Shown in pieces: positions 7,601-55,795 of a stretch of 64,000 nt of DNA. The notes under the pieces were generated by a model. It saw only the letters and a list, made by a program, of their open reading frames with translations, ran no database searches and was not told where the DNA came from. The stretch lies in the NCBI GenBank assembly GCA_046116545.1, contig CP175956.1, forward strand, positions 577,734-641,733. The letters run 5' to 3'. This DNA comes from Candidatus Moraniibacteriota bacterium. Its GTDB lineage: Bacteria; Patescibacteriota; Minisyncoccia; Moranbacterales; GCA-2747515. Positions within the stretch are counted from its first letter, which is position 1. The number at the start of each line of letters is the position of its first letter. The position numbers and the translations under genes are program-made.

Positions 7601-7662
7601 GTTTGTTGACTTAATAATTGAAGATAATAAAATACGTTTCTCATAAAAGGGAAGGAGATAAT

Positions 7663-28400: not shown

Positions 28401-28604
28401 CCAACATGTGAGGACGACGGATCATGTCCGGATCCAGTAACAAAAACAGTTACAATATCAACTATGTGTGCTCAAAAAGAATGTAATGCACAAGGAAGCT
28501 GCCAATCAACACCAATAGCAGCTTCAGATCTAAGTCAATGTTCAAGTACATGTAATTCAAATGCAGATTGTTCTAGTGGTAGGATTATTGAGACTAGGCC
28601 ATAA
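25422..28604 (+). CDS. Large secreted/surface Cys-rich protein (N-terminal domain, TM helix, internal signal-peptide-like segment, then repeated W-x-C / C-x-G-x-G Cys modules)
   Basis: Signal peptide MKFFLSSIFTMLFLFNIQSIVAQE. TM at IIWVVGTIIFGLLAIVIY followed by MMRMVIIVLLGVNMFFITSYAVEA (in-frame ATGs at 26859/26862). The C-terminal ~570 aa contains >50 Cys. Confidence 0.6.
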   Translation: MKFFLSSIFTMLFLFNIQSIVAQEVTQDDVNVVDDLSLTGSFENIEFVDNQPLLDSDVDGATYGSDEIYVPEVVVELSDILFDENTYELNTVTTVTNTTDTFLANLEYTLELGKGDELVENGDIFGATEYVYQETHDLGKLAPYEKKEFELTMTVPNNIDPANYVLQIFVNDKNLKFQNGTYTEQPFELSGTGGRLTGLKVYFYADRYGEKTFPAAGLSTEPDDYVMLMLPLDENQSVKDLVDAGEQLRAKVQIFRTVKDGGMVKEFETGFDRKDVNGQNSITVDLLADNEELKTGGSFDVHIAVLNEDGTELYERNMRWLIEFGQIVGRVLSVESGKNMYKKGEAIDLMVTTALFNSEDKKGRFDIVLKGRNGFEQKITKTVTFVGDDVEEVLFSDKKIESDAHLTDVEVSLVDVENNIVVDAYNTDIDFDEMYGREVEKQNVFLVFLQNNRYIIWVVGTIIFGLLAIVIYKTMVGRKMMRMVIIVLLGVNMFFITSYAVEAACDCSRTPSANIWITRAPPSRVTCGTNARMEVALRVSCRSCINGVATRITTSAGTRKDWSYGHYSSATRYYAFTQRISRSTRMWAKAWFIRNGCHCCPRPGGSGCHPGVTNGSMCGINVPIGQVAKTVTCTNPARNGVCGTRHKRTYNYDAVGWGGYSRCSVGTPVPTWPSFPAQGATTTWTCSGSNGGSTANCWAKRSEPPRIDGVCKLQTSPINTLDSKPTQSNSTLCSSGTATTITGDGSVASPWRWDCNGSGPVHTDQTGCIVRMNPGRCGTTSTPYDYKSDWNGTETFCSFGVAVPTQNSSTFPQIDVNNPQPISTSWNCRTVGGDSPTCTAINNPPSISCGVANNETEINTTPSPSSSLCSANAAEINSPALNSIGRWEWNCKYNGLNLTAGPCSAPSCLAGDLLNYSSNVYLKQDPNDQTVSVSVVCDNPNPPKICCDIDAVEVGSNPVNNPTHICTGEGTKEIVVPVAGSYPAQCYFVDPSDPTCEDDGSCPDPVTKTVTISTMCAQKECNAQGSCQSTPIAASDLSQCSSTCNSNADCSSGRIIETRP

Positions 28605-33104: not shown

Positions 33105-34322
33105 GTGAAACAAGATAAGAAATCGATGTATGTTCACATCAAAACAATTGAATTAGCATGGAAGAGTTTACATAAAAATAAATTTCGGTCTTTTCTGACG
33201 TCTTTGGGAATTATCATTGGTGCTGCGACAATTGTTTTAGTAATAGAAATGGGGGCTGGTGCGAGTGAAAAAATTGAAGAGCAGTATTCAAATATGAGTG
33301 TTACAACAATTTTGATTAATGCACCATCAGGGGCTGATGGTAATAGGTCTAAATTAAGTGATGAAGATATCGATGCTCTCCTTATGAGTGAAAATATTAC
33401 AAATGCTGTTCCACAGTTATCAGGCAAAATGCAGGTAACTGGTGGAGACAATTCATATCAGTCAAATATTGTCGGTACTACTTCGGGATTTACAGATATT
33501 GCAAGCATTGAGATGAGTAGTGGGGAGTTTTTTACTGATGAAGATGAGGATGATCATACTAAGGTTGTTGTAATTGGAGCAACAGTTGCAGAAGAGTTGT
33601 ATGGAGATAGAAACGCAAAAGTAGTTGGTGAAGATATTATGGTTGGAAAAAAGCAATTTGAAATTGTAGGTGTTGCTGCATATAAAGGTGGGTCAATTGG
33701 CCCAACGTCAGTTGATGATAGCGTGATGATGCCGTACTCATCTGCATATAGGTATGCACTAGGTAAAAGTGGTAAGTTTAATTTAAACGTACAAGCTGCA
33801 GATGTAGATGTATTGGATCTTGCTATGGAGGACGCGGGTAATATTTTACGTAAAGAACATAATATCCGTGTAGGTATGACAGATGATTTCAGACTGCGTG
33901 ATATGGGTGCAAATGTGCAATCTGCAAAAGATAGTGCACGGACAATGTCACTCCTACTAGGTAGTGTTGGATTTATAGTTTTGCTTGTTGGAGGCATTGG
34001 AATTATGAATGTTATGCATATTATAGTAAAAGAGCGTACAAAAGAAATTGGTATAAGAAAGGCAATTGGAGCAAAACGAATATACATATTATTACAGTTT
34101 TTGTTTGAAGCTATAATTCTAAGTGCTTTTGGTGCTATTGTTGGTATAATTATTGCCACAGGATTATTCTATATATTAGCGGGGTATGGATTAGATATTG
34201 TGTTTGTGTGGTGGAGTTATGTATTGTCAATATTTTTTACAGTTGCTATTGGTGTATTTTTTGGATACTATCCAGCACTGAATGCTTCACGATTAAAACC
34301 AATAGATACATTGCACGAATAA
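33105..34322 (+). CDS. ABC transporter permease, MacB/FtsX family
   Basis: N-terminal TM, large periplasmic domain, and a C-terminal 3-TM FtsX module with KEIGIRKAIGAKR. Confidence 0.75.
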   Translation: MKQDKKSMYVHIKTIELAWKSLHKNKFRSFLTSLGIIIGAATIVLVIEMGAGASEKIEEQYSNMSVTTILINAPSGADGNRSKLSDEDIDALLMSENITNAVPQLSGKMQVTGGDNSYQSNIVGTTSGFTDIASIEMSSGEFFTDEDEDDHTKVVVIGATVAEELYGDRNAKVVGEDIMVGKKQFEIVGVAAYKGGSIGPTSVDDSVMMPYSSAYRYALGKSGKFNLNVQAADVDVLDLAMEDAGNILRKEHNIRVGMTDDFRLRDMGANVQSAKDSARTMSLLLGSVGFIVLLVGGIGIMNVMHIIVKERTKEIGIRKAIGAKRIYILLQFLFEAIILSAFGAIVGIIIATGLFYILAGYGLDIVFVWWSYVLSIFFTVAIGVFFGYYPALNASRLKPIDTLHE

Positions 34323-34486
34323 AACTTATGTGTTTTGCACATTTCTGCGTCAGAAGTAAATTAATTCAATCAGTGTATTTTCATACACTTCAATCATTAA
34401 TGTACTTCTTCCTTGAACTGAACAAAACACATAAGTTTTATAAAAAAGGTTAAATATATTTTTTAAATTAATAACATAACAAAAGT

Positions 34487-34978
34487 ATGAAGAACTATAT
34501 TGTAGGAACAATTGTTTTACTGGGTGCTGTCACATTTTTAAGTGGTTGTGGGACTGAAGAAAATAATGATCTTGCACAATTACAGGATATTGTATCAAGT
34601 GATACAGAGTCTTTGAGTACACCTAGTCGGCCAGCTGAAATAAATGGTACAATTGCATCAATGGAAGGTAATCAACTTGTTGTAAAGAATGAAGTAGGAA
34701 GAGAAGTTCTATCTGATGAAGAACGGGAAGCACGAAAGGCAGATCGAGCAAGTATGACTCAGGAAGAAAAACAAGCAGCACGTGCGCAAGAAATGGAGGC
34801 TGTAGAGGTTGATGATGTGTCAGTAGTTGTACCTGTTGGAGCTATGATGATAAAAGGGACTGGAACTGGTGACGGAGGAAGTATGAAAGCTATTTTTGAT
34901 GATTTAAAAGAGGGTGCTTATATTTCTGTGTGGATGGATGGAGATAACGTGGAGGCTATTAAGATAAAAGGTTTATAA
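34487..34978 (+). CDS. Lipoprotein, hypothetical
   Basis: Lipobox LSGC. Confidence 0.5.
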   Translation: MKNYIVGTIVLLGAVTFLSGCGTEENNDLAQLQDIVSSDTESLSTPSRPAEINGTIASMEGNQLVVKNEVGREVLSDEEREARKADRASMTQEEKQAARAQEMEAVEVDDVSVVVPVGAMMIKGTGTGDGGSMKAIFDDLKEGAYISVWMDGDNVEAIKIKGL

Positions 34979-34984
34979 TTTTAT

Positions 34985-36172
34985 ATGAAAAAAGCAAAAG
35001 TGATAAAAATTGTAGGAATAATCGTAACGATTAGTTTGATAGCTTACGGTATAATTTATTTTGGATTTTTGAAAAAGGATGTCCCAGAGTTGGAATATAC
35101 TACAGAAAAAGTCATAAAGGGTAATATTCAATCATCAATTTCAGTTGATGGAACTATTGTTTTTGATACGTGGAATTTAGAGTTTTTGAATTCTGGTATT
35201 GTACAGACAATTGATGTTGAATTAGGTGATGAAGTTAAAAAAGATCAAGTCATTGCGGTTTTAGATGCAAGTGCAGAAAGTAATCGTATAGCTCAGTCGA
35301 CAGCAGATTTAAATGCAAGTGTTGCAAATAGAGATCGTATGAGTGAGGATGGTGTTGATTATGAACTTCAAAAAAAGAAGTATAGTGCATCTAAAGATAA
35401 GGCAGACACAGAAGATGATTTATATGATGAATATGTAGATCAATATGGCAAGGAATCAACACAAGCTTTGTCTCAAAAAATCAAAAAAGAATCAGCAGAA
35501 GATGATGTGAAAATAACTAAAAAACAATTAGAACAAGTGGAGGTTAGTTACGATAATGCACAATATCAAGTTGATAAAAGTAGCTCCGCATACCAACAGT
35601 CGTTGCAGGCATATGATGATTATGAAATCACAGCTCCTGTAAGTGGTGCAATAATTGCACAGATAAATGGTACTGAGGGTAGTGTTATTTTAAATAATAA
35701 CAACAGTACAACAGAGCCATTTATTGTTATGGTTGATCCAGATAGCTTTTGGTTTGAAACTTATGTGGAAGATGTGGAAGCACTAAAAATTACGCCAGAT
35801 ATGAAAGCATATATAACTCTGGATGCATATCCAAATGAAGAGTTTGAAGGCCGTGCAATTTTTGTATCACCTGTAGCTGAGCTTGATTCAAATGATTTAG
35901 CAACATACAAAGTAATTATTGCCGTTGATGATATTGAAGAGCAATTATTGAGTGATATGTTTGGTTCTGCTGAATTAGTGTCAGAAGAGGTGCGGGATGT
36001 ACTTATGATTTCAAGTGCAGCTGTTACAAATAAAAATGGTAAAAAAATTGTTATTATCAAAACTTCAAATGGATTTGAGGAGAAAGAAGTAAATACTGGA
36101 TTTACAAATGGTAAAAAAGTTGAAATTACATCAGGACTAAAGTTGGGAGAAGAAATTGTAATTATAAAATAA
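34985..36172 (+). CDS. HlyD/membrane-fusion-protein family periplasmic adaptor
   Basis: N-terminal TM, coiled coil, ITAPVSGAII beta-barrel motif. Confidence 0.7.
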   Translation: MKKAKVIKIVGIIVTISLIAYGIIYFGFLKKDVPELEYTTEKVIKGNIQSSISVDGTIVFDTWNLEFLNSGIVQTIDVELGDEVKKDQVIAVLDASAESNRIAQSTADLNASVANRDRMSEDGVDYELQKKKYSASKDKADTEDDLYDEYVDQYGKESTQALSQKIKKESAEDDVKITKKQLEQVEVSYDNAQYQVDKSSSAYQQSLQAYDDYEITAPVSGAIIAQINGTEGSVILNNNNSTTEPFIVMVDPDSFWFETYVEDVEALKITPDMKAYITLDAYPNEEFEGRAIFVSPVAELDSNDLATYKVIIAVDDIEEQLLSDMFGSAELVSEEVRDVLMISSAAVTNKNGKKIVIIKTSNGFEEKEVNTGFTNGKKVEITSGLKLGEEIVIIK

Positions 36173-36175
36173 GAC

Positions 36176-36835
36176 ATGGAAAAATTAATTTCATTGCAAA
36201 AAATTCATAAAGGATATCAATTGGGCAAAAACTTTGTTCCAATTATTAAAGGTGTTGATATTGAAATTGTAAAGGGAGAATTCATTGTACTCATGGGTCC
36301 ATCTGGATCAGGGAAGACAACACTTATGAATGTTTTGGGTTGTTTGGATGTGCCAGAAAAAGGAAAGTATTTTTTGGATGGGCAAGATGTGTCGCATATG
36401 AGTGAAGATGAATTATCAGAAATACGTAATAAACATATAGGATTTGTGTTTCAAAGTTTTAATCTAATACCAGATTTAACTGTGTTGGAAAATGTTTCAT
36501 TGCCAAGCCTGTATGCTGGAAATGAAGATATTGATAAAGCAAAAAAGATTTTAGAGGAAATTGGACTTGGTGAAAGATTAGAACATCAACCAAATGAATT
36601 GTCTGGTGGGCAAAAACAACGTGTGGCAATTGCAAGAGCACTTATTAATAGTCCAGATATAATTTTTGCAGATGAACCAACGGGAAATCTTGATTCAAAA
36701 TCGGGTAAGGAAGTGATGGAAATCTTTCGTAAATTAAATGAAGGTGGTACAACAATTATTTTGGTAACACACGATGCATTTACAGCAAGTTTTGCATCAC
36801 GTACAATTGATTTAAAGGATGGTCTTATTATTTAG
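36176..36835 (+). CDS. ABC transporter ATP-binding protein (MacB/LolD-type)
   Basis: Walker A GPSGSGKTT, signature LSGGQKQRVAIARAL and Walker B IIFADEPTGNLD. Confidence 0.9.
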   Translation: MEKLISLQKIHKGYQLGKNFVPIIKGVDIEIVKGEFIVLMGPSGSGKTTLMNVLGCLDVPEKGKYFLDGQDVSHMSEDELSEIRNKHIGFVFQSFNLIPDLTVLENVSLPSLYAGNEDIDKAKKILEEIGLGERLEHQPNELSGGQKQRVAIARALINSPDIIFADEPTGNLDSKSGKEVMEIFRKLNEGGTTIILVTHDAFTASFASRTIDLKDGLII

Positions 36836-36905: not shown

Positions 36906-37718
36906 ATGAAGAAGAAAAAAATTATAGTCGCAACAATGACAATGATGATGGTAGTTATTTTTGCAGGTTGTGAACAAATTCAAAAAGAAAGTGCGGTAGA
37001 ACAAGTGAAGGATTTAGCAAGTGATATGGCAGCAGTTGATGAATATGTTGTAGATCCAAGTGATAATATACAACCGCATACTCTAATTAGTGACATTGCA
37101 GCTGGAGACTTGAGTGAGGCTGAGGAAGCTGGATTAATTTTGATGCGGGAAGAAGAAAAATTAGCACATGATGTATACATGACATTGTATGAAAAATGGG
37201 GTCAAAATACATTTCAAAATATTGCAAAAAGTGAGCAAACACATACAGACACTGTAAAAGTATTACTTGATAAGTATGGCATTACAGATCCTGTGGTGAG
37301 TAGTGAAGTTGGTGTGTTTACGGCACCAGAGATGCAAAAGTTGTATGATGATTTGGTTGCAAAGGGTAATGTAAGTCTTGTAGAAGCCTTAACTGTAGGG
37401 ACAATTGTTGAGGATTTAGATATTAGTGATTTAAATAAACTTTTGGCAGAAACTGATAATGAGGATATTCAAATTGCATACCAAAATCTTAATAAGGGTT
37501 CACGTAATCATTTGAGAGCTTATGTACGACAGTTGGAGCGCAATGGTGGAGAATATACACCACAATATATTAGTCAGGCAGAATATGATGAAATTATTGC
37601 AGGAGAACAAGAGCGTGGAAGTGTGGATGCAAAAGGTCAAGGGCAAAATACAGGAAGTCGTCAAGGCGGGGGTAGAGGTAATGGTGGCGGTGGGCAGGGT
37701 ATGAATCGTGTACAATAA
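36906..37718 (+). CDS. Lipoprotein with ferritin-like (DUF2202-type?) domain and Gly-rich C-terminus
   Basis: Lipobox FAGC, then EEKLAHDVY...SEQTHTDTV di-iron-like motifs. Assignment is tentative. Confidence 0.45.
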   Translation: MKKKKIIVATMTMMMVVIFAGCEQIQKESAVEQVKDLASDMAAVDEYVVDPSDNIQPHTLISDIAAGDLSEAEEAGLILMREEEKLAHDVYMTLYEKWGQNTFQNIAKSEQTHTDTVKVLLDKYGITDPVVSSEVGVFTAPEMQKLYDDLVAKGNVSLVEALTVGTIVEDLDISDLNKLLAETDNEDIQIAYQNLNKGSRNHLRAYVRQLERNGGEYTPQYISQAEYDEIIAGEQERGSVDAKGQGQNTGSRQGGGRGNGGGGQGMNRVQ

Positions 37719-37748: not shown

Positions 37749-38360
37749 GTGAGAATTTTGTTTTTGTATAATAATAAAATTATGAAAAAAATAATTATAA
37801 TAAGTGTATTTTTATTAATGCCGTTATTTACGTTTGCACAGTGGGATGATTGTCCCTTTGGCGAAACAGATGATAGCTGTTCAGCACCTGGTAAATGTGG
37901 TAGATATACAGATTCGAATAGTGATCAGATTTGTGATCATTCGCAAGATGCTCCGATTCAAGAAATTAAGATAACAAAAGATACTGTTATATCAAGTGTG
38001 CAAGATGTGACTAAAAATAATGAATCTCAAATAGAAACACAAACAAGAAATCAGTATCCATTGTTTATGATTGTTATAGTAACTAGTTTATTGTATAGCA
38101 TGACATATATCCTTGCACAAAATAAGACAATAACGGTAGTTATGCATAAAAAGATTTGGAATAGCGTGCTTACAGTAGCATTTTTGGCAACATCTATTTT
38201 GGGCATAATGTTGATTATGCGTATTAATTCTGGTAATACATCTACACCTCCATTTAATATAATGTATTGGCATGTAGTAACAGGAATTGTAATGATGACA
38301 GTCACAGCATTTCATATAGGATGGCATTGGAGATATTATAAAAATCTTTTTAAAAAATAA
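37749..38360 (+). CDS. Membrane protein with N-terminal Cys-rich extracytoplasmic segment
   Basis: DCPFGETDDSCSAPGKCGRYTDSNSDQICDHS followed by 3-4 TM helices. Confidence 0.45.
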   Translation: MRILFLYNNKIMKKIIIISVFLLMPLFTFAQWDDCPFGETDDSCSAPGKCGRYTDSNSDQICDHSQDAPIQEIKITKDTVISSVQDVTKNNESQIETQTRNQYPLFMIVIVTSLLYSMTYILAQNKTITVVMHKKIWNSVLTVAFLATSILGIMLIMRINSGNTSTPPFNIMYWHVVTGIVMMTVTAFHIGWHWRYYKNLFKK

Positions 38361-38494: not shown

Positions 38495-41400
38495 ATGAAA
38501 AAAAATATTGTCAAGCTTTTGGGTGTATTTGTTTTTTTTGCGTACCTTGTATCAATGTCCACTACTACAACTTTTGCAGTAGATGAAACAACTATTGAAG
38601 AAATTATTCCAAATGAATTTCAAGGAGGTGGAATAGCGCAAGGATGGCAAGGGGATGATGATAATTGGGATTATGCACTTCCATTCACATTCAATTTTTA
38701 TGGAGTAGATTATACTAATATAAAAATAGGTTCAAATGGAGCTATTTGTCTGGATAATGCACAAAACTGTACATGGTATGCAGAAATAAATAGTAGTTGG
38801 ATGGGGCCAGTTATAACAGCTCTAGGTAAAGACCTTATAACGAATGATATATTTATAACAGAAAGTTCGGATAATGTTGTTATACGGTGGGCTGTAACAG
38901 AATATGGTACATCAAATCAAATAAACTTTGAAGTAGTATTGTATAGTGATGGAAATATAAAGTTTAATTATGGAAATTCTGATATAGCACTTTCAGGTGG
39001 CGCAGTAGTTGGAATTCTTAAAGGTGATGGCATAATATATACAGAATCAGTCTATCATCAAAATACAGAGTTTGATCAAGTGGATACATCAGCATGGGGT
39101 GAGTTTGGAATAGGTGTTGAGAGTTTTTTTCCAGCAGATAATGAAGCTGGTGTGTTTTTGGATACAGACTTAAAAATAACTTTTGATACTGAAATATATC
39201 AAGGAATAGGCAATATTGAAATAAAGAAAAAATCAGATAATTCTATTGTAGAAATGATAGATGTTACAGCAGGTCAAGTAACGGGCTTTGGAACAGTAGA
39301 TATTACAATTTCAACAAATATTGAATTACAAACATATACGCAATATTATGTAACAGTAGATGAAAATACATTTAAAGATATAGATGATGAAGCATATTTA
39401 GAAATAAGTGATAATACAACATGGAACTTTTCAACAGGGGACGGTTATATTATAAAAACAATTTCAGAGGGACGATGTTATGAAATTGGCTCTGCTGAAA
39501 CACAAAAGCCAACAAATACAGAATTATCATACTCAAATGATAATCAAGTGACTTGGACTTATGTGCCTGAAGATCAGGGTACTGGAGGGGACTGTAATAT
39601 TACGGATGTACGACTTAATGTTTTTGCAGATACACAAACAATTGGTGAAAACTTAGAAACCGAGTTTGTGGGAACACTTATAGATACACAAGTTACTAAT
39701 AATGATGATGGAGAAGTTGGTTTAGTATATAATAATGTGGGAACATATGTGTTTGGTAGCACAAACAGAGATGATGGGCAGAGTATTGTAGTAGATACAC
39801 AAAATAATGTATATATTGCAGGAGCCTTTAGTGACACGGTAGACTTCAATCAATCGGGTATCGGGTTACCAGACAACCATACTAGCACTGGTTATCAAGA
39901 TATTTTCATTACAAAATATAATGCAGATAGTTCATATGGTTATACTTATGCAATGGGTGGAACAAATAATGACGTTGGATATGACATCGCAACAGATTCT
40001 CAAGATAATGTTTATATAATTGGAAGCTTTCATTTGACAGTTGATTTTAATCAAACGGGTAGTGGATTGCCAGATATACACACAAGTAATAGTAGACGTG
40101 ATATTTTTATCACAAAAATAAATGCAGATGGTAGCTATGGCTACACGTATACATTTGGAGGACTTCCAGATACTTTTGGAAATAATAATTATGGGTATGC
40201 AATTGCAATAGATTCTCAGGACAATGTTTACGGTATGGGAAATTTTTCTAGAACAATAGACTTCAATCAAACAGGTAGTGGTTCAGTAGATAATCATGTT
40301 AGCAATGGTTATTATGACATATTTATCACAAAAATAAATACAGATGGATCTTATGGTCATACGTATACAATGGGAGGAGTAGGTTATGATTATGGACATG
40401 AGATTACGACGGATACACAAAATAATGTATATATTACAGGTGCTTTTAGTGGCACGGTAGATTTTAATCAAACTGGCAGTGGCTCACCAGATAGTCATAC
40501 GAGCAATGGTAGTAGAGACATATTTATAACAAAATATAACGCAGATGGCTCATATGGCTATACTTATACAATGGGGGATGTAACCTATAATGCTGGACGA
40601 GGTCTTGTGGTGGATACACAAAATAATGTATATATTACAGGAGAGTTTAGTGGCACAGTGGACTTTAATCAAACAGGTAGTGGGTTACCAGATAGTCATA
40701 CTAGTAATGGTATTTTAGACATATTTATTACAAAATATAACCCCGATGGCTCATATGGTTACACTTATACAATGGGTGGATTGGGTTATGATTATGGAAA
40801 TGGAGTTACTCTGGATATGCAGGACAACGTATATATTACAGGATCCTTTAATAACACAGTAGATTTTAATCAAACGAACGGTGGTAGTTCAGATGTGTAT
40901 GTGAGCAATGGCGCTTATGATATTTTTATTACAAAGATAAATGTAGATGGTTCTTATGGTTGGACTAATACATTTGGTGGAACAGATTCAGATTTTGGCC
41001 TTGGTGTGGCACTGGATGATTCCAATGATGTTCTTGTGACAGGGATTTTTAAAGGCACTGTAGAGTTTAATCAAACAGGTGCAGGATTGGCAGAATCATA
41101 TGTAAGTAAGGGTGATTATGATATTTTTATTACAAAATATAACGCAGATGGTTCATATGGAACATTTTTTTCAGATAGTTACAAGACAGTAGGAGATTAT
41201 CAAGTACAGATAGCACATAATGATTCTATGGCGTGGCAACAGTTAGAGATAATGAGCAATGATCCAATAGACACAAACTTGGAATATACAATATTAGATA
41301 ATACTTGTGCAAACACGCTCGTAGGGCCAATATCTGATACTATGATAGATTTATCGTCAATTGGAAATAGTGATGCGGGGTTATGTTTTCAGACAAATTT

Positions 41401-44400
41401 TACAACAATAGATACACAAGTAACTCCGCAAATAAATTCATGGACGGCAACATATGCAATAGAGAGAAATATTACAGACTTTAATTTTAATACAATTTCA
41501 CAAAGTACAATACAAAATTGTGATTGTTATGTGATAGGGTCAGCCGAAGCTGAACAGCCAGAAAATTCAATATTATATTTTTCAAAAGATGATGGATTTT
41601 CATGGGATTATATACCAGTAGACAACGGAGGAGGAATGGATTGTAATGTCACAAATGTAAAAGTGAAATACAATGATGATACTCGTGAAGTAGGCGAAGA
41701 CTTGGAAGGTGAGTTTACTGGAGTAATTACAGACACAGAAATCGTCAATGTTGATGGTGGAGAGATTGAAATAAAAAAAGGTGGAATGGGAACTTATTCT
41801 GTTGGTACTGGTGGTGAAGTGGGTTATGGTGTTGTAGTAGATGGTAACAATAATATTTATGTTACAGGAGAATTTGGAGATACTACGGATTTTAATCAAA
41901 CGGGGGTAGGTGAGTCAGATATACATACTAATAATGGAGCTTATGATATTTTCATTACAAAATATAATGCAGATGGTTCATATGACTATACATATACAAT
42001 AGGTAGTACTGGCGATGATACTGGATTAGATATTATTACAGATGATCAAAATAATGTATATATTACAGGACGGTTTGAGAATACTGTTGATTTCAATCAA
42101 ACGGGTTCTGGTAGTTCAGATGAACATACAGCCATTGGTAGCCTAGAAAATATTTTCATAACAAAATACAATGCCGATGGTTCATATGCATACACATACA
42201 CAATAGGTAGCACTGGATATGACTATGGAGAGGGTGTTGTAGTTGACAGTGTAGGTAATGTATATATGATAGGGTTTTTTGAAAATAGCGTTGAATTTAA
42301 TACAACTGGCTCAGGTGTATCAGATATACACACAAGTCATGGCTCTCGTGATATTTTCATAACAAAATACAATGCAGATGGTTCATATGACTATACTTAC
42401 ACAATGGGTGGTTCAAGTTATGATTATGGGTATGGCATAGCAGTGGATAGTTCGGATAATATATATATGACAGGCTCATTTAGTGGTACTGTTGACTTCA
42501 ACCAAACTGGTTCAGGTGCATCAGATACACATACCAATAATGGCTCTCGTGATATTTTCATAACAAAATACAATGCAGATGGTTCATATGACTATACTTA
42601 CACAATGGGTGGTTCAAGTTATGATGATGGTAAAGATATTATCATAGATAATTTTGGGAATGCATATATTACAGGATATTTTCGAAGTTCAACAGCAGAA
42701 TTTAATCAAACTGGTTCAGGTGCATCAGATATGCATACAACCAATGGATCGTATGATATTTTTATCACAAAAATAAATGCAGATAATGGCTATGGTTACA
42801 CATATACAATGGGGAGTTCTCAATCTGAACATGGGGAAGGTGTCACGGTAGATAATTTAGGTAATGTATATGTTACAGGATATTTTGGGGGAGATATGGA
42901 TTTCAATCAAACTGGATCAGGTGATCCAGATGTTCATGCAATTAGTGGAGGAGGTTATGATGTTTTTATAACAAAATACAATGCAGATGGTTCATATGGC
43001 TACACGCACACAATAGGTGATAACCAAACTGTTTTTGGATTTAGCATTACAACAGACAATTTAAATAACCTTTATACAACTGGATTATTTAATGCCACTC
43101 TTGATTTCAATCAAACTGGAACAGGTGAATCAGATATTCACACAGGCTATATGAATGCGACTATGTTTCTTACAAAAATTAATGCAGATGGAACCTACGG
43201 AACGTTGTATGAATATTACAAATCACCAGGAATCTACCAAACCAAAATCCCCTCAACAAACATAAAAGAATGGAAAGAATTAACAATAGATCAAAATACC
43301 CCAGATGACACAACAATCAAATACGAAATATTAGATCAATTATGTACAAATACGTTGATAAATGAAACAGAGAATACAACAATAGACCTATCAAGTATAA
43401 ATACAATCAATATAGAACTTTGTCTCGAAATAACCTTTGAAACAACAGATGTACAAGAAACTCCAATCTTAAACAGTTGGCAAGCAACCTACACAACAGA
43501 TCCAGAAACAGATGAAGAAGAAATAGATTTTCAGACAATGAGAAATCCAGAATGTGATTTAGTAATATTGCCTATTAATCCAGTAGATCCAATAATTCCA
43601 CCAGAAGAACCAGAAGAAGAAAAAGAATGCAAAACCGACAATATAAAAGAAATAACAAAAGATTCAGTAACTCTAAGAGTAGAAGTAGATGAAGAATACG
43701 CAGATGAGAAAATAAAATTCAAAGTAGAAGTAGAGAATCTATATACAAATGAAAAAGAAACAATAAAACTAACGGATAAACCATCTGATAGTGGAAGAGT
43801 AACTCTAGAGATAGATAACCTAGAAGAAGATACCCAATATAGGTTCAAAGTATCATATCAAGAAGATGATAGCTACGAATACTGTCCACATTCTAAAACA
43901 GCAACAACAGAAAAAACAACTCTAGGACCTACAAAAGAAATAGTAAATCCAGAATGTGGAGAATCAAGTAAAACATATACAGAAGATGAATCAGAATTCA
44001 CAGGAGACTTCTGTCAAACAGGAGAAGTATTAAATATACCAGAATTTCCAAATCAAGGAGAATCATCTTCATGGACATGTACAAATGATGATGAAGAAAT
44101 AACATGTAGCGCTAGTAGAGAAGAAAAAGAAATAGTAACTCCTCCAGTAGTACAAGGAGGAAGTGATCCTGAACCACCAGCACAAGAAGTAACAGATCCT
44201 CCTGTACAAGAACCAACAAAGGAACAACAAAAAGAAAAACAATATCAAGCAGCTGCAGTAGTAGGATTAACAACAGGAACACTAATAGCTCTAGCTTCAA
44301 CAACAATCCCTCTATTCACAACAATCCCAATGGCAGCAACAGATATATTCATAATGCCTTTCTTAGGAATATTAGCTAGAAGAAAAAATGAACAAAACTG

Positions 44401-45142
44401 GGGAACAGTGTTTGAACAAACAACAAAACAACCATTGCCTGGAGTAAAACTAGTTCTAACTGATATAGAGGGCTTTGAAATAGAAACAACATACTCAGAT
44501 CAACATGGAAGATTTGGATTCTTAACAACAAATGGAACATATCTGATACATCCAGAAAAACCAAAATATGAAGAAGACCTAACTCATAACCATGATTCAC
44601 TATACGGAGATGTATATACAGGAGAAGCATTAACAATAGAAGAAAACAAAGTTCTAGCAACAAATATTGCAATGAATGCCCTGAATATAAACTGGAATGA
44701 ATATGCAGATAAAAAAGTAAAAAGCTATACAGGAACTTTCTCAGCAATAAAGAAATGGAGCTTCATAATTCTTTTTTACGTAGGATTTATAGCTACAGCA
44801 GCAATAACTTACCTGTACCCATCAACTCTAAATTACATATTCCTATCTCTATATATGGCACTGTTCATTTATGATAACTTCATAAAACAAAAGAAATATG
44901 GAACAGTAACAAAACATGATAAAAACCCAGTACCTTTTGCAGTAGTATCACTCCATAACAAAGAAACAAATCAAAAAACAGGATTCGCTGTAACAGATGC
45001 AATAGGAAGATATTATCTTCTAGCAGAAAATGGAGATTACAATATGAAAGTAAAAGGACAACCAATATCAGGACAACCTTTTGAAAAACAAGGTAATATC
45101 AATGTTAGGAAAGGTCTTGTTAGGGAGGATATTAAAGTTTAA
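38495..45142 (+). CDS. Giant (2215 aa) cell-surface protein: two blocks of ~10 SBBP beta-propeller repeats inside a duplicated super-module, FN3-like domain, Pro/Glu-rich linker, 3 TM helices and 2 CarboxypepD_reg-like domains
   Basis: Signal peptide, then the repeat unit VDTQNNVYITG.FSGTVDFNQTGSG..D.HTSNG..DIFITKYNADGSYGYTYTMGG. C-terminal modules VKLVLTDIEGFEIETTYSDQHGRFGF and FAVVSLHNKETNQKTGFAVTDAIGRYY. Confidence 0.8.
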   Translation: MKKNIVKLLGVFVFFAYLVSMSTTTTFAVDETTIEEIIPNEFQGGGIAQGWQGDDDNWDYALPFTFNFYGVDYTNIKIGSNGAICLDNAQNCTWYAEINSSWMGPVITALGKDLITNDIFITESSDNVVIRWAVTEYGTSNQINFEVVLYSDGNIKFNYGNSDIALSGGAVVGILKGDGIIYTESVYHQNTEFDQVDTSAWGEFGIGVESFFPADNEAGVFLDTDLKITFDTEIYQGIGNIEIKKKSDNSIVEMIDVTAGQVTGFGTVDITISTNIELQTYTQYYVTVDENTFKDIDDEAYLEISDNTTWNFSTGDGYIIKTISEGRCYEIGSAETQKPTNTELSYSNDNQVTWTYVPEDQGTGGDCNITDVRLNVFADTQTIGENLETEFVGTLIDTQVTNNDDGEVGLVYNNVGTYVFGSTNRDDGQSIVVDTQNNVYIAGAFSDTVDFNQSGIGLPDNHTSTGYQDIFITKYNADSSYGYTYAMGGTNNDVGYDIATDSQDNVYIIGSFHLTVDFNQTGSGLPDIHTSNSRRDIFITKINADGSYGYTYTFGGLPDTFGNNNYGYAIAIDSQDNVYGMGNFSRTIDFNQTGSGSVDNHVSNGYYDIFITKINTDGSYGHTYTMGGVGYDYGHEITTDTQNNVYITGAFSGTVDFNQTGSGSPDSHTSNGSRDIFITKYNADGSYGYTYTMGDVTYNAGRGLVVDTQNNVYITGEFSGTVDFNQTGSGLPDSHTSNGILDIFITKYNPDGSYGYTYTMGGLGYDYGNGVTLDMQDNVYITGSFNNTVDFNQTNGGSSDVYVSNGAYDIFITKINVDGSYGWTNTFGGTDSDFGLGVALDDSNDVLVTGIFKGTVEFNQTGAGLAESYVSKGDYDIFITKYNADGSYGTFFSDSYKTVGDYQVQIAHNDSMAWQQLEIMSNDPIDTNLEYTILDNTCANTLVGPISDTMIDLSSIGNSDAGLCFQTNFTTIDTQVTPQINSWTATYAIERNITDFNFNTISQSTIQNCDCYVIGSAEAEQPENSILYFSKDDGFSWDYIPVDNGGGMDCNVTNVKVKYNDDTREVGEDLEGEFTGVITDTEIVNVDGGEIEIKKGGMGTYSVGTGGEVGYGVVVDGNNNIYVTGEFGDTTDFNQTGVGESDIHTNNGAYDIFITKYNADGSYDYTYTIGSTGDDTGLDIITDDQNNVYITGRFENTVDFNQTGSGSSDEHTAIGSLENIFITKYNADGSYAYTYTIGSTGYDYGEGVVVDSVGNVYMIGFFENSVEFNTTGSGVSDIHTSHGSRDIFITKYNADGSYDYTYTMGGSSYDYGYGIAVDSSDNIYMTGSFSGTVDFNQTGSGASDTHTNNGSRDIFITKYNADGSYDYTYTMGGSSYDDGKDIIIDNFGNAYITGYFRSSTAEFNQTGSGASDMHTTNGSYDIFITKINADNGYGYTYTMGSSQSEHGEGVTVDNLGNVYVTGYFGGDMDFNQTGSGDPDVHAISGGGYDVFITKYNADGSYGYTHTIGDNQTVFGFSITTDNLNNLYTTGLFNATLDFNQTGTGESDIHTGYMNATMFLTKINADGTYGTLYEYYKSPGIYQTKIPSTNIKEWKELTIDQNTPDDTTIKYEILDQLCTNTLINETENTTIDLSSINTINIELCLEITFETTDVQETPILNSWQATYTTDPETDEEEIDFQTMRNPECDLVILPINPVDPIIPPEEPEEEKECKTDNIKEITKDSVTLRVEVDEEYADEKIKFKVEVENLYTNEKETIKLTDKPSDSGRVTLEIDNLEEDTQYRFKVSYQEDDSYEYCPHSKTATTEKTTLGPTKEIVNPECGESSKTYTEDESEFTGDFCQTGEVLNIPEFPNQGESSSWTCTNDDEEITCSASREEKEIVTPPVVQGGSDPEPPAQEVTDPPVQEPTKEQQKEKQYQAAAVVGLTTGTLIALASTTIPLFTTIPMAATDIFIMPFLGILARRKNEQNWGTVFEQTTKQPLPGVKLVLTDIEGFEIETTYSDQHGRFGFLTTNGTYLIHPEKPKYEEDLTHNHDSLYGDVYTGEALTIEENKVLATNIAMNALNINWNEYADKKVKSYTGTFSAIKKWSFIILFYVGFIATAAITYLYPSTLNYIFLSLYMALFIYDNFIKQKKYGTVTKHDKNPVPFAVVSLHNKETNQKTGFAVTDAIGRYYLLAENGDYNMKVKGQPISGQPFEKQGNINVRKGLVREDIKV
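39470..43500 (+). repeat. Internal duplication of a ~2 kb super-module ([Cys module]-[~10 SBBP repeats of ~180 bp]-[~95-aa module]) within the giant surface-protein gene
   Basis: CYEIGSAETQKP.. / CYVIGSAEAEQP.. and YKTVGDYQVQI.. / YKSPGIYQTKI.. flank the two SBBP blocks (39780-41170 and 41810-43200). Confidence 0.8.
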
Positions 45143-45336: not shown

Positions 45337-45756
45337 ATGAATAAGAATCAAATAATCGGCATAATAATCTTAGTAGCATTTATTTTTGTTGCTATATTTT
45401 TGTATGTTGTATTTCGTGCAAATAAACAAGAGGTTACAGAAGATATGCTAAATAATGAAGGAGAATATACGGTAGATATCAATAACGATGTTACTTTAGA
45501 TTCATTTTTGAATGAAGATTCAAAAAATAGTGGGGATATTGATATTATCTCAGAAATATCTGATGAAAATGCAGGTCAACAAGTTATAGTAGAAATAATT
45601 GAAGAAAAAGAAGATATGAAAAAACCAGCTGTTGTAGTTAATGAAGTGAAAACTTCTCCTCAAACAGGGCCTGGTGCAAATGCTGCTTCTGTAGCATTAT
45701 TAACATCAGTTATTATTTCTGCAGCTATATTTAAAACTCAAAAATCAAGTAAATAA
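45337..45756 (+). CDS. Small membrane-anchored acidic protein, hypothetical
   Basis: N-terminal TM and C-terminal hydrophobic segment. Confidence 0.4.
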   Translation: MNKNQIIGIIILVAFIFVAIFLYVVFRANKQEVTEDMLNNEGEYTVDINNDVTLDSFLNEDSKNSGDIDIISEISDENAGQQVIVEIIEEKEDMKKPAVVVNEVKTSPQTGPGANAASVALLTSVIISAAIFKTQKSSK

Positions 45757-45844
45757 TAGAGGTTATTATTACTTTTAAAAAAGCTCATAGCAATATGAGC
45801 TTTTTTGTTTGCTTAAAGTGATTTTTTCAGATATACTTACATTC

Positions 45845-47650
45845 ATGAAAAACATTAGAAACTTTTGTATTATTGCGCATATTGATCACGGAAAATCCAC
45901 ATTGTCGGATCGTCTTTTAGAAGTTACTGGAACTATTGAGGAGAGAGATATGAAAGAACAATTGTTAGATACGATGGATTTAGAAAGGGAGCGTGGAATT
46001 ACTATAAAATTGCAACCAGTCCAAATGGCATATAAGTATAATGATGTAGATTATACTTTGAATTTAATTGATACTCCTGGACATGTGGATTTCGCTTATG
46101 AAGTATCACGGTCACTTGCTGCAGTTGAGGGTGCTGTTTTATTGGTTGACGCTTCTCAGGGAGTGCAAGCTCAAACTCTTACAAATTTATATTTTGCACT
46201 TGAACAAGATCTTGAAATTATACCAGTGCTAAACAAAATTGATTTACCTAATGCTGATGTTGAAAAGGTAAAAAAAGAAATTGTGCATATATTAGGTTGT
46301 GATGCTGATGATATCTTGGCCGTTAGTGGTAAAACGGGGGAAGGTGTAAAAGAAATGCTTGAGAAAGTTATAGATGATACACCTGCACCAAGTGGTCAAG
46401 AAGACGGAGCAACTAGAGCACTTATTTTCGATAGTGTATATGATTCTTATAAGGGTGTGTTGGCTTATGTTAGAGTTGTAGATGGTAAAATAAATAAAAG
46501 AGATGACATACACATGCTTATGACAAAAGGTCAGAGTAGTATTGTGGAGCTAGGTCATTTAAAGCCAGGCCATGAAATTTGTGATGATTTACTAACTGGA
46601 GATATAGGATATATTGCCACTGGATTTAAAAGTGTATCAGAATGTAAGGTTGGTGATACAATTACACTTAAACAGAATTCAAAAACAGAAAATTATGATG
46701 AAATAAACCCACTAGCAGGTTATAAAGAAGTGCAGCCTGTAGTATATGCTAGCTTTTATCCACTAGATGGTAGTGATTATAATTTAATGCGGGATGCATT
46801 AGAGAAGTTAACTTTAAATGATGGCGCATTTAGATTTGAGCCAGAAAGCAATAAGGCTCTCGGTAGAGGGTTTAGATGTGGTTTTTTAGGACTTCTTCAT
46901 TTAGAAATCATACAAGCAAGACTTGATAGAGAATTTGATATGAGTCCAACTATAACAACTCCAAGTGTTGTTTACAAAATACACAAAAAGGATACAGATG
47001 AAACTGTGGATATATTTTCCCCTACAGAACTCCCAGATCCTTCAGTGGTAGAATCAATAGAAGAGCCTTATGTGAAATTAGAAATCATAGCTCCAAGTGA
47101 ATATTTAGGGAGCGTAATGGAGCTTATGGGAAATACTAGAGCAGAATATAGAACTACTGAATATATAGATGAATCTCGTGTGCAACTAGTTTTTGATGCA
47201 CCTCTTATGGATGTGATTGTTGATTTTCATGATCAACTAAAAAGCATTTCAAGTGGTTATGCATCTATGAACTATGAACCAATGGGTTACAGAACAAGTG
47301 ATTTAGTTAAATTAGATATATTGGTTGCTGGAGATGTTGTTGATGCATTTGCAAGAATTATTCCTAGAGATAGCGCTCATAAAGAAGGAAAAGCAACGGT
47401 CAATAAGCTTAAAGACGTATTACCAAGACAAAACTTTACAGTTGCAATTCAAGCTGCAATTGGAGCAAAAGTTATAGCTAGAGCAACCATAAGTGCATTT
47501 AGAAAAGATGTTACAGCAGGATTGTATGGTGGAGATATAACTAGAAAAAGAAAACTTTTGGAAAAGCAAAAGAAAGGTAAAAAAAGAATGGCACAATCAG
47601 GAAAAGTAGATATTCCACCAGAAACATTCTTGAAAGTTTTAAGAAAATAA
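45845..47650 (+). CDS. lepA: Translation elongation factor 4 (LepA)
   Basis: MKNIRNFCIIAHIDHGKSTLSDRLLE and DTPGHVDF. The start moves to the canonical Met; ORF-track uses 45809. Confidence 0.9.
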   Translation: MKNIRNFCIIAHIDHGKSTLSDRLLEVTGTIEERDMKEQLLDTMDLERERGITIKLQPVQMAYKYNDVDYTLNLIDTPGHVDFAYEVSRSLAAVEGAVLLVDASQGVQAQTLTNLYFALEQDLEIIPVLNKIDLPNADVEKVKKEIVHILGCDADDILAVSGKTGEGVKEMLEKVIDDTPAPSGQEDGATRALIFDSVYDSYKGVLAYVRVVDGKINKRDDIHMLMTKGQSSIVELGHLKPGHEICDDLLTGDIGYIATGFKSVSECKVGDTITLKQNSKTENYDEINPLAGYKEVQPVVYASFYPLDGSDYNLMRDALEKLTLNDGAFRFEPESNKALGRGFRCGFLGLLHLEIIQARLDREFDMSPTITTPSVVYKIHKKDTDETVDIFSPTELPDPSVVESIEEPYVKLEIIAPSEYLGSVMELMGNTRAEYRTTEYIDESRVQLVFDAPLMDVIVDFHDQLKSISSGYASMNYEPMGYRTSDLVKLDILVAGDVVDAFARIIPRDSAHKEGKATVNKLKDVLPRQNFTVAIQAAIGAKVIARATISAFRKDVTAGLYGGDITRKRKLLEKQKKGKKRMAQSGKVDIPPETFLKVLRK

Positions 47651-54130: not shown

Positions 54131-55795
54131 ATGAATAATAAATATATATTTCCATTAGTTTTACTTGCAGTTGGTGCTTTTATTTTTGTAGCGTTTTTTA
54201 CGTTTAGTCCAACCGCTACAGATAACAATAATGTGCGTGTTTCAGAAGACGTGAGCACTCTGTTGCAGGAAGAACAACCAGAACCCACATATTTATTCAC
54301 ACATTCAACAGGCGGAGGAATATTTGAAAATATTGGAGGAGATAAATATATTTTGACATTGTCAAATCCAGAAAGTGATGTGATTTATTTTTCAGACAGA
54401 CCTTTTAGAGAGGTTGGACAAGAAAAGCTAGGAATATTTTTAAATACATTAGGATTTGAGGTAGGCGATGCTCCAAATGCAACAATCGTAGTAGAAAATG
54501 AAGACGGAGATAAAACGATGATTGTTGCAGAACTTACAGAGCCGATTTTCAATAGAGATGATAATACTCTTACATATACAGCAACAATTTTACGAGAAGA
54601 AACAGGTGAATTGGCAGAATATGGAGAAGCTAAGATACCAGAAAATTTTGCAAATGCTACATTATTTATAGATAGTTCAAAAAAGCACACTAACAAAAAA
54701 GATACATGGAAAGATCATAAAGATGAAAAATGTGGTAAAAAAGATTATAGAATGACACTGGGTGATGCGTATGACATAGCAAGCGGAACAGAAAGTGAGT
54801 GTTTGATTTATGATGATGCAAAGTTAAGCAAAACAGATTTCGAATGTAAGGATGATGTATGGAAAATTAATATGGACACAAGTCTGAAGGGTGAAGCAAG
54901 TAAGTGTAAAGCATATTGCATTGTTGTGCCAAATGAAAAATATAAAAAAGGAGAAGGTGTTGCTCGTATAGAATATGATTGCAAACATTCAGCTGATGAA
55001 AAAGGAGATAAAAATAAATATTGTTCTAGTCCAGATGTGAAAAAAGGACATGAATATGCGGATGCTAGAAGTGATTTGATTAGTGAATACCATCATATTT
55101 TAAATAAAGCAAAGGATAAAAAAACTAGTTATGAACATCATTATTGTGTAGAAACAGGAATGCCGTATTCATCAAATAAACATTGGGCAACAGATTGTTC
55201 TGGTCTTGGAGGCTATGCATTATTTCACAAATTACCATATCATTATAAGTTGTTAGATGACAGTAGGAAAGCACATGCAAAAGCAGATAGACCATTAGCT
55301 ATGGATTTTTATAATTTTATAGATAATGTAAATGATGATGGTAACAAAGAAGAAAAGTCTTGTTGGGAGAGAATTCATAAATTGGAAAATGCTAAACAGG
55401 GAGACTTCCTTGTAGTTAAATATAATGAACACACAAAAAGTAATTCAACAGGACATGTTATGTGGATTGATGAAGTTCATAGTAAAACAGGAGATCATCG
55501 TAAGATAACAGTAATTGATTCTGCAAATAGTGGTCATGGTAGCGATACAAGAAAAGATAAAAATACATACAACTGTAAAGGTGAACACGACTGCGGTATA
55601 GGAATGGGTGATATGTGGTTTTATACAGATGACAAAGGACATCCAACACAATACACATGGAAAGCACATCCAGGACAGCATACACGATATTGCAAATATG
55701 AAGACAAAGACTGTGATTGCAGTAAGAATGGTGATGATAAATGTGAGCTAGAAGGAATCGTTATTGGTCGCGTAAAAAATTGTACAGCTAAATAA
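54131..55795 (+). CDS. Secreted protein with C-terminal NlpC/P60 (CHAP-like) cysteine peptidase domain; putative cell-wall hydrolase
   Basis: Signal/TM N-terminus, then Lys/Asp/Cys-rich region. Catalytic Cys context HWATDCSGLGGYALFH and His context GHVMWIDEVH. Confidence 0.55.
   Translation: MNNKYIFPLVLLAVGAFIFVAFFTFSPTATDNNNVRVSEDVSTLLQEEQPEPTYLFTHSTGGGIFENIGGDKYILTLSNPESDVIYFSDRPFREVGQEKLGIFLNTLGFEVGDAPNATIVVENEDGDKTMIVAELTEPIFNRDDNTLTYTATILREETGELAEYGEAKIPENFANATLFIDSSKKHTNKKDTWKDHKDEKCGKKDYRMTLGDAYDIASGTESECLIYDDAKLSKTDFECKDDVWKINMDTSLKGEASKCKAYCIVVPNEKYKKGEGVARIEYDCKHSADEKGDKNKYCSSPDVKKGHEYADARSDLISEYHHILNKAKDKKTSYEHHYCVETGMPYSSNKHWATDCSGLGGYALFHKLPYHYKLLDDSRKAHAKADRPLAMDFYNFIDNVNDDGNKEEKSCWERIHKLENAKQGDFLVVKYNEHTKSNSTGHVMWIDEVHSKTGDHRKITVIDSANSGHGSDTRKDKNTYNCKGEHDCGIGMGDMWFYTDDKGHPTQYTWKAHPGQHTRYCKYEDKDCDCSKNGDDKCELEGIVIGRVKNCTAK

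Follow-up and report, generated by a model that had tools for sequence, protein, structure and literature searches.

We analysed a stretch of 64,000 nucleotides from a Candidatus Moraniibacteriota bacterium (contig CP175956.1, positions 577,734 to 641,733; hereafter the window), in which a single open reading frame (ORF) at 38495..45142 on the + strand runs from ATG to stop and encodes an SBBP repeat-containing surface protein of 2215 amino acids (aa). Both the ORF list and the translation bear out this reading frame, which had been reported in an initial annotation of the window. The protein matched NCBI entry XLQ20730.1 (P0019 in our set) with 100% identity over 100% of its length; this entry lies on a contig of 1,286,331 bp and is titled 'MAG: SBBP repeat-containing protein [Candidatus Moraniibacteriota bacterium]' (MAG, metagenome-assembled genome). 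The record name refers to the SBBP repeats only and is silent on the arrangement of the repeats as seven plus seven, the duplicated super-module, the head domain and the C-terminal anchor cassette that we describe here. From the N- to the C-terminus, the protein consists of a signal peptide, a NIDO-like head, a Big_5 domain, two copies of the super-module, an FN3-like domain, a small 4-Cys domain, a Pro/Glu-rich stalk and a cassette of 300 aa, all encoded on the + strand. In itself, it is an ordinary, already-annotated member of a large class of repeat-rich bacterial surface proteins.

The N-terminus (aa 1-28, 38495..38578) resembled a signal peptide in a hydrophobicity scan, with a predicted cleavage site at MKKNIVKLLGVFVFFAYLVSMSTTTTFA/VDE and without a lipobox Cys; the pattern [LVI][ASTVI][GAS]C is absent from the first 35 aa, and the first Cys of the protein is at aa 85. 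The C-terminal hydrophobic segments, noted initially as transmembrane helices, were found at aa 1919-1961 and 2089-2130. The head and the 4-Cys domain had gone unnoticed. The head (aa ~43-205, ~165 aa, 38621..39109) was delineated by its homology to the proteins P0020-P0023, P0026 and P0025, and has no direct match in Pfam, NIDO included, even at E≤1. It matched four repeats of the unrelated, 3386-aa P0025 with 31-38% identity (E 1e-26 to 7e-28), and the alignment to P0025 aa 642-806 (31% identity, E 1e-26) encloses the NIDO match (PF06119) of that protein, which spans aa 675-727 and scores 44.4 bits against a cutoff of 25. The head is thus termed NIDO-like in a transitive sense only, which does not amount to demonstrated membership of the family. 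It is followed by a Big_5 bacterial Ig-like domain (aa 208-314, 39116..39436; PF13205, E 7e-8, 33.6 bits against 23.6).

The repeats that give the protein its name matched the Pfam SBBP profile (PF06739) in 11 stretches, with 102.6 bits (cutoff 20.5) and E 1e-29, which upheld the initial assignment to this repeat type; the related propeller family DUF5122 was also reported. The anchor motif DIFITK[YI]N, which is highly conserved, occurs 14 times, at aa 469, 536, 608, 675, 742, 809 and 876 in the first run and at aa 1151, 1219, 1286, 1353, 1421, 1489 and 1556 in the second, and the repeat period is 67 aa, corresponding to 201 nt in the DNA repeat analysis. The 14 units span aa 423-896 (39761..41182) and aa 1105-1576 (41807..43222), or 946 of the 2215 aa (~42%), and these values replace the earlier estimates of ~20 repeats of 60 aa making up ~30% of the protein. 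The same annotation had described two repeat blocks, each with a Cys module before it and a module of ~95 aa after it, and this arrangement was confirmed, both flanks being ~100 aa long. In super-module 1, the pre-propeller Cys module (aa 322-422, 39458..39760; conserved Cys328 and Cys367) aligns with aa 1005-1104 and with P0020, P0022 and P0023, and the post-propeller all-beta module, together with a short spacer (aa 897-1004, 41183..41506; Cys938 and Cys964), aligns with aa 1577-1670 and with P0020 and P0022. The corresponding parts of super-module 2, the Cys module at aa 1005-1104 (41507..41806) and the post-propeller beta-sandwich module at aa 1577-1680 (43223..43534; Cys1617 and Cys1643), were placed by alignment to the first copy and the relatives and by structure prediction, respectively.

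For super-module 2, an AlphaFold2 (AF2) model built from six homologous super-modules reached a mean predicted local distance difference test score (pLDDT) of 76 and a predicted TM-score (pTM) of 0.71. The propeller part was predicted best (pLDDT 85-95), the post-propeller module was all-beta with seven strands (pLDDT 55-85), and the Cys module remained below 50; a propeller nested in a single split beta-sandwich formed by the Cys and post-propeller modules was considered and, given this pLDDT of the Cys module, not taken up. The best PDB match of the model in Foldseek was CylK (E 1.3e-23 over 484 columns, with a root-mean-square deviation of 3.8 Å), which was also the only PDB sequence match (phmmer 1e-17), at ~21% identity and confined to the propeller part of the chain (residues ~271-517). 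In CylK, the C-terminal domain is a seven-bladed propeller with a Ca2+ site at every blade junction (PMC8916777). Because each block contains seven units and the modelled block matches CylK, the prediction of two seven-bladed propellers is well supported, the first of them by its 57% identity to the second, which is the one that was modelled. A partial match to NCBIfam NF047494 (LipL53) at aa 1110-1547 had an E-value of 3e-47; its 161.3 bits against a cutoff of 400, together with the absence of a lipobox Cys, ruled out a LipL53-family SBBP lipoprotein.

Each super-module, comprising the Cys module, the propeller and the small beta-sandwich, is ~670 aa long, and the two copies (aa 322-990 and aa 1005-1669) align collinearly with 52% identity over 672 aa, as expected from the initial proposal that a ~2-kb segment was duplicated in frame. 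In the DNA, identity is 66-68% between the copies and 60-87% between single blade units. This divergence rules out both a duplication of recent date and a mis-assembly of repeats that are identical. The Cys modules of the two copies are 44% identical and the post-propeller modules 40%, compared with 46-53% between these modules and those of P0020 and P0022; since the flanking modules of the two copies resemble each other no more than they resemble those of other species, we read the duplication as old, with a later homogenisation of the blades. Another MAG encodes a protein (P0020) that likewise carries two super-modules, and independent duplications are a conceivable alternative to a single old one. 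The initial annotation had also raised the concern that the duplication might be an artefact of assembly. A collapsed or expanded array would account for the tandem 201-nt repeats and for the one exact 69-nt repeat in the gene; we nonetheless rejected it on the DNA divergence of the copies and consider it very unlikely, on the evidence of the sequence rather than of reads, as the frame stays open across 6.6 kb, each block contains exactly the seven blades that a closed propeller needs, and the two-super-module layout recurs in the independent species that encodes P0020. Strain-level variants of the window protein were not present in the databases searched. The exact 69-nt direct repeat (42341-42409 = 42542-42610) is shared between blades 3 and 4 in propeller 2. 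No identical stretch longer than this was seen in the gene, and recombination or mis-mapping of reads is most likely at this place.

Between the second super-module and the membrane lie a linker (aa 1681-1715, 43535..43639), an FN3-like domain (aa 1716-1810, 43640..43924), the 4-Cys domain (aa 1811-1880, 43925..44134) and a membrane-proximal stalk rich in Pro, Glu and Gln (aa 1881-1918, 44135..44248), the linker and the stalk being delimited by reading the sequence. An FN3-like domain and, after it, a PPEEPEEE linker had been proposed for this region. The linker was located, but with PPEEPEEE at aa ~1701-1708 it precedes the putative FN3-like domain, for which Pfam fn3 (PF00041) stayed below threshold, with 21.3 bits where 25 are required (E 3.2e-4; profile positions 8-73 out of 84). 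The FN3-like domain is 60% identical to aa 1702-1794 of P0021. The 4-Cys domain, a unit of 70 aa with the pattern CGxxxxxY..F.G.FC...W.C....C, occurs three times in P0021 and is found upstream of the same anchor in P0013. In Pfam, the Cys module, the post-propeller module and the 4-Cys domain gave nothing significant, a match to F5_F8_type_C at E 0.04 being disregarded. The motif LPxTG is absent from the whole protein, which ends in a folded beta-sandwich of 80 aa rather than in a basic tail, and the protein does not bear the signature of a sortase signal or of a short C-terminal sorting signal of the PEP-CTERM or GlyGly-CTERM type.

The C-terminal cassette had been taken for a peculiarity of this protein, and this proved incorrect. 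A search with aa 1916-2215 returned 18 proteins with 44-61% identity and one more with 25%; among these matches were 'mini' proteins of ~390 aa, in which only a signal peptide and a short Thr-rich segment precede the cassette. Scanning a single genome of each species gave 38 cassette loci with ORFs of 387-2197 aa, mostly in Moraniibacteriota, with further loci in Parcubacteria, Saccharibacteria, Dojkabacteria, Harrisonbacteria, Nealsonbacteria and Paceibacteria MAGs, and nearly all of the complete ORFs have signal-like N-termini. We then searched 1.84 billion representatives with a hidden Markov model (HMM) of alignment A1, which retrieved 5,771 clusters with E≤1e-3, of which 1,597 reached E≤1e-30. 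Among the best 150 matches, the cassette ended no more than 12 aa from the C-terminus in 130 of the 132 full-length matches, the part upstream of it had a median length of 508 aa and reached 3,820 aa, and a hydrophobic, signal-like N-terminus was present in 91 of the 114 complete proteins. The ectodomains carried on the cassette include RCC1, DUF285, DUF7948+SBBP+GLUG, fn3 and Big_5. Several copies can occur in one genome: a second anchor-bearing giant (P0042, XLQ20016.1, 1878 aa) is encoded on the same 1.29-Mb contig as the window protein, and three cassette loci come from the MAG JBBQZC01; within the window there is no further copy. Because proteins whose ectodomains differ greatly carry the cassette at their extreme C-terminus, it is a cargo-independent C-terminal anchor, shared by thousands of Patescibacteria surface proteins.

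The signature of the cassette, ~300 aa in length, consists of a first transmembrane helix (TM1) with GxxxG, a basic cluster followed by W-G, a first beta-sandwich with GRFGFL, a transmembrane hairpin (conserved G, P..N loop and Y), another basic cluster after the hairpin, and a second beta-sandwich with GRYY. The window protein scored 488 bits against the A1 profile over aa 1818-2215, ending at its last residue, and all conserved positions are present. We found no Pfam or NCBIfam model that covers the cassette as a unit, and literature on CarboxypepD_reg, SBBP or Moranbacteria in connection with surface anchoring in Patescibacteria yielded no description of it, which is not proof of novelty. 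The CarboxypepD_reg assignment made initially was confirmed by Pfam (PF13620; E 1.5e-13, 51.3 bits against 32.3, in two stretches, with PF13715 matching as well), and the two domains flank the last pair of transmembrane helices. They are located at aa ~1969-2065 (44399..44689) and at aa 2136-2215 (44900..45139; best Pfam stretch aa 2136-2187), the latter forming the C-terminal end of the protein.

For the predicted topology of the cassette, we examined a profile of 149 family representatives. The first hydrophobic region (44249..44395) begins with TM1 at aa 1919-1942, whose GxxxG is ~80% conserved, and continues with an uncharged loop of 8 aa (P1945, 69%), a hydrophobic stretch of just 11 aa (aa 1951-1961) and a basic cluster (RRK, aa 1962-1967) in which Lys or Arg occupancy reaches 90%. 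A nearly invariant W1969 and an invariant G1970 lead into sandwich 1, which is followed by a Lys-rich amphipathic helix. The helical hairpin (aa 2089-2130, 44759..44884) is formed by TM2 at aa 2089-2108 (G2097, 97%), a loop of 5 aa (P2109, 85%; N2113, 94%) and TM3 at aa 2114-2130 (Y2120, 93%), after which a basic cluster (K2133, 94%) precedes sandwich 2. The Lys/Arg clusters are thus found after the first hydrophobic region, before TM2 and after TM3, while both short loops are uncharged. With the exported N-terminus outside, the positive-inside rule then places the three basic clusters on one side and the uncharged loops on the other, which argues for three passes with the sandwiches in the cytoplasm. 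We consider it quite probable that the protein crosses the membrane three times, with both CarboxypepD_reg sandwiches predicted to be cytoplasmic and the 1,890-aa ectodomain outside. The ectodomain has a pI of ~4.05, a net charge of -219 and all 18 Cys, while sandwiches 1 and 2 have pI values of 5.6 and 9.8 and no Cys, a compositional break that is consistent with this topology. The initial description of three transmembrane helices with beta-sandwiches on both faces is therefore probably right, as judged by positive-inside statistics, although what had been called unusual is a trait of the family and no anomaly of this protein.

The alternative topology has four membrane passes, so that both CarboxypepD_reg domains would lie outside as wall-proximal spacers or in contact with peptidoglycan, leaving the protein wholly extracytoplasmic save for short loops. 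It derives from the length of the first hydrophobic region, 43 aa, in which AF2 draws two helices (aa 1917-1942 and 1947-1958), and from the folds matched by Foldseek (SdrD B, CnaB, UafA and the transthyretin-like domain of carboxypeptidase D), which are extracellular in their known contexts. Four passes would, however, require a second segment that is only ~11 aa long across the family to span the membrane and, in conflict with the positive-inside rule, would put the three conserved Lys/Arg clusters on the outer side and the uncharged loops on the inner side. The two CarboxypepD_reg domains also depart sharply from the ectodomain in composition, including their lack of Cys, and we regard this topology as unlikely. 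Two points nevertheless weigh against the three-pass topology. In the AF2 model of the 300-aa cassette, pLDDT values of 80-93 were reached by both sandwiches and by the hairpin of TM2 and TM3 (model helices 166-192 and 196-215), whereas TM1 and the first hydrophobic region as a whole stayed below 50, and the choice between one and two passes there is made solely by the positive-inside rule and the length of the segment. In addition, CarboxypepD_reg/transthyretin-like and CnaB-like domains are typically extracellular. Foldseek returned single-domain matches only for the cassette model (CnaB, SdrD-B and transthyretin-like, with TM-scores of 0.2-0.28), and a match to the BOS complex (9c7u_B) was too poor to interpret. 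None of the family members carries an extra domain in a C-terminal extension that might reveal the compartment.

Proteins built on the same scaffold are encoded by other Moraniibacteriota MAGs, namely P0020 (2474 aa), P0021 (2197 aa), P0022 (1634 aa; MCK4636152.1, 'Ig-like domain-containing protein'), P0023 (2415 aa) and P0026. All five share the head and Big_5 with the window protein, and the head, at 54-66% identity, is the best conserved part of the ectodomain, while the propellers are only 36-46% identical between species. The type of super-module seen in the window protein is shared by P0020, which has two, and by P0022 and P0023, which have one each; the post-propeller module (aa 1577-1680) is 52-55% identical to its equivalents in P0020 and P0022. 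In P0021, the head, Big_5, the FN3-like domain, the 4-Cys domain and the anchor (66% identity) are kept, but an RCC1 propeller and other repeats take the place of the SBBP super-modules. The anchors of P0020 and P0022 are 32-33% identical to that of the window protein, and these proteins have additional DUF4215 Cys-rich repeats, whereas P0023 and P0026 are without an anchor.

Taken together, we favour, with a probability of about 60%, a Sec-exported, membrane-anchored and modular adhesin-like surface protein displayed on an anchor typical of its lineage; the initial view of an exported, membrane-anchored giant of SBBP propeller repeats with a duplicated super-module is supported. Features that point to an adhesin are the long, acidic, disulfide-bearing ectodomain with its beads-on-a-string layout, the conserved distal head, and the propeller modules that vary or are swapped between relatives. 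The ectodomain would serve as an adhesin or ligand-binding arm, in which the head and the propeller faces might bind proteins or glycans presented by a partner cell or substrate. Specificity may be set by the variable middle part, given that the scaffold is combined with SBBP, RCC1 or other repeats in relatives, and the predicted cytoplasmic beta-sandwiches could stabilise or cluster the anchor or couple it to intracellular partners. In the patescibacterium TM7x, the pilin PilX2, with a heptabladed RCC1 propeller, is required for efficient host binding (PMC11623550). This precedent within the same superphylum, together with the RCC1 propeller that P0021 carries on the same head and anchor scaffold, favours the adhesin reading, and, by analogy only, a role of the window protein in host attachment is plausible. 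Two observations nonetheless speak against this reading: among solved structures, the propeller comes closest to CylK, which is an enzyme rather than an adhesin, and no conserved neighbouring gene fit for a cytoplasmic partner was found among the 38 loci and the window. The adhesin role, which appears most likely, is argued from architecture and analogy. A receptor would be a further rival role for the protein.

The presence of the same anchor on very many ectodomains, with several per genome (as with P0042 on the same contig and the three loci in JBBQZC01), would also suit a structural envelope or surface-layer (S-layer) type of coat protein, for which the cassette would be the membrane attachment. 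Patescibacteria have been reported to carry S-layer proteins, and Dehalococcoides has one with a beta-propeller (bioRxiv 10.1101/2024.05.28.596244), and the highly acidic ectodomain, rich in Thr, Asn, Ser and Gly, is typical of surface-layer proteins. However, an elongated beads-on-a-string ectodomain with a conserved distal head and middle modules that vary strongly among relatives is more like an adhesin than a lattice former, and Pfam detected no SLH or other lattice domain in the window protein, making a coat function rather improbable. We give even less weight to catalytic propellers of the CylK or lactonase/lyase kind, with which the protein would act as a surface enzyme that modifies or degrades components of the host envelope. 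The best PDB matches in sequence and structure are to CylK, and several lower Foldseek matches are propeller hydrolases or lyases, but the sequence match is limited to the CylK propeller (~271-517), at the low identity given above, and the blades are highly regular, without blade-specific insertions that would hint at an active site. Moreover, the active site of CylK depends on a Ca2+-binding domain at its N-terminus that packs against the propeller (PMC8916777); a domain of this kind was not detected by Pfam in the window protein.

A different emphasis, compatible with an adhesin but in our view doubtful, would make the cassette a Patescibacteria-wide transmembrane coupling module, in which the sandwiches tie varied adhesins to an intracellular partner or cluster them. 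Candidate partners could be the cytoskeleton, the division machinery or a signalling protein, and an analogy is offered by Mycoplasma adhesins, which are tied to the terminal organelle. If this were true, the twin-propeller protein would count among the cargoes of a general 'outside-in' system by which ultra-small epibionts attach. In an all-vs-all BLAST comparison of the 38 loci and the window, the cassette genes had no universal conserved neighbour; the largest cluster comprised 8 loci, from close relatives, and the hypothesis of an operon partner was thus not supported.

To our knowledge, little is understood of how Patescibacteria, or the Candidate Phyla Radiation (CPR), recognise and hold partner cells beyond a few cultivated Saccharibacteria, in which only type IV pili have been tested genetically. 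The locus described here points to a second, apparently general display system beside type IV pili, in which a conserved head and Ig scaffold is combined with swappable propellers (SBBP here, RCC1 in a relative) and with a cassette that ends at least 1,600 protein clusters. It is this widespread cassette, with its three transmembrane helices and double sandwich, that is unusual, while the duplicated propeller super-module reflects unsurprising modular evolution. The cassette also gives a simple sequence marker by which the membrane-anchored surface proteins encoded in any Patescibacteria genome can be listed and, if the sandwiches are cytoplasmic, would provide a physical link between surface binding and the interior of the cell.

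Several known systems share parts of this architecture. The SBBP lipoproteins of Leptospira (NF047494, LipL53 family) have the same type of propeller repeat, but the window protein has two propellers instead of one, is about five times longer, and uses a transmembrane rather than a lipid anchor, without a lipobox. CylK, the Friedel-Crafts alkylase of cylindrocyclophane biosynthesis (PDB 7ron, 7fh6), likewise has a seven-bladed propeller of the same repeat family; it is, however, a soluble two-domain enzyme with its active site between the N-terminal Ca2+-binding domain and the propeller, whereas the window protein is a membrane-anchored multi-domain protein in which Pfam found no beta-roll or Ca-binding family corresponding to the CylK beta-roll. 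In Mycoplasma genitalium P110, a propeller N-domain is followed by a stalk domain and then a transmembrane helix (PMC6203739). Like the window protein, P110 and PilX2 are beta-propeller ectodomains shown by tiny, host-dependent bacteria, an analogy of how they work with no sequence relationship shown, but P110 has a single transmembrane helix and PilX2 is borne on a pilus, and both are without tandem propellers or a cassette of three transmembrane helices and two beta-sandwiches. The CarboxypepD_reg/transthyretin-like/CnaB-type sandwiches (PF13620, PF13715; SdrD B and the C-terminal domain of carboxypeptidase D) have the same fold as the C-terminal pair of the window protein, and differ from it in that the known examples are extracellular stalk or regulatory domains, whereas those of the window protein are interleaved with transmembrane helices at the extreme C-terminus and predicted to be cytoplasmic.

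Some further observations were made on the cassette loci. The 'mini' anchor genes and the gene of the giant P0021 lie directly downstream of large genes (L012 698-4267, L013 72-2678, L011 159-2342 and L002 343-4107). In L012, L013 and L002, the Pfam scan assigned to the upstream gene a beta-propeller (DUF5122 or FG-GAP) and a Peptidase_S74 intramolecular-chaperone domain, and the upstream ORF of L011 belongs to the same BLAST cluster as these three. The Peptidase_S74 domain is a hallmark of trimeric tail-fibre-like proteins, and the mini anchors may provide the membrane dock of fibres that are encoded separately. The lepA gene of the window (45809-47650) is within a few kb of the cassette gene, as is lepA in L025 (5511-6923), L028 (2101-3510) and L032 (6729-8180), which are loci from distant Saccharibacteria, Harrisonbacteria and Parcubacteria MAGs and have lepA on the opposite strand; this proximity could represent an ancestral position of a cassette gene or a coincidence. 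Finally, cassette genes 26-66% identical to that of the window were found in MAGs labelled as non-Patescibacteria, namely L003 and L007 (DYDB01, 'Micavibrio sp.'), L009 and L018 (CAZHQB01, 'uncultured Micavibrio sp.'), L016 ('Bacteroidales'), L019 ('Bdellovibrionales') and L029 ('Gammaproteobacteria'). One of these loci is on a 388-kb contig, and for most of them the G+C content is low (0.30-0.41), which suggests mislabelled or contaminated bins and not a wider taxonomic range.

The neighbours of the giant gene are ordinary chromosomal genes, and nothing among those in the window points to a mobile element or to an operon partner. Directly upstream (33105-36835 and 36906-37718) are a MacB_PCD/FtsX permease, an HlyD-like adaptor and an ATPase, which form a MacB-type ABC transporter set, and then a DUF2202 gene; the set is of tripartite style in an organism expected to be without an outer membrane, and a link to the giant protein is not established. 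LepA, MreB, MreC and PBP2 are encoded downstream, and other genes of the window encode a ClpB-like ATPase, EF-P, RecQ and a Cu-ATPase. The immediate flanks of the giant gene are ORFs of 203 aa (37749-38360) and 139 aa (45337-45756), both without a Pfam match, as is a 554-aa ORF at 54131-55795 (+). A 1060-aa ORF at 25422-28604 (+) has no Pfam match at E≤1e-4 and lies in the stretch of highest G+C in the window (0.397), compared with 33% for the window overall. A scan for promoters and terminators was near chance (51 promoter-like sites against 49.7 expected, and 5 terminator-like sites against 2.5 expected) and was not used. The GC skew is positive in 31 of the 32 2-kb bins and the cumulative skew climbs almost monotonically, the + strand carries almost all genes and nearly all long ORFs, and the 64 kb contain no tRNA gene, all of which fits a leading-strand stretch of one replichore. 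At the start of the window (770-3013, +), a ResIII/DEAD-type helicase is fused to five DUF4379 treble-clef zinc-finger repeats (E 1.4e-78), and a second ResIII helicase is encoded at 7618-9618.

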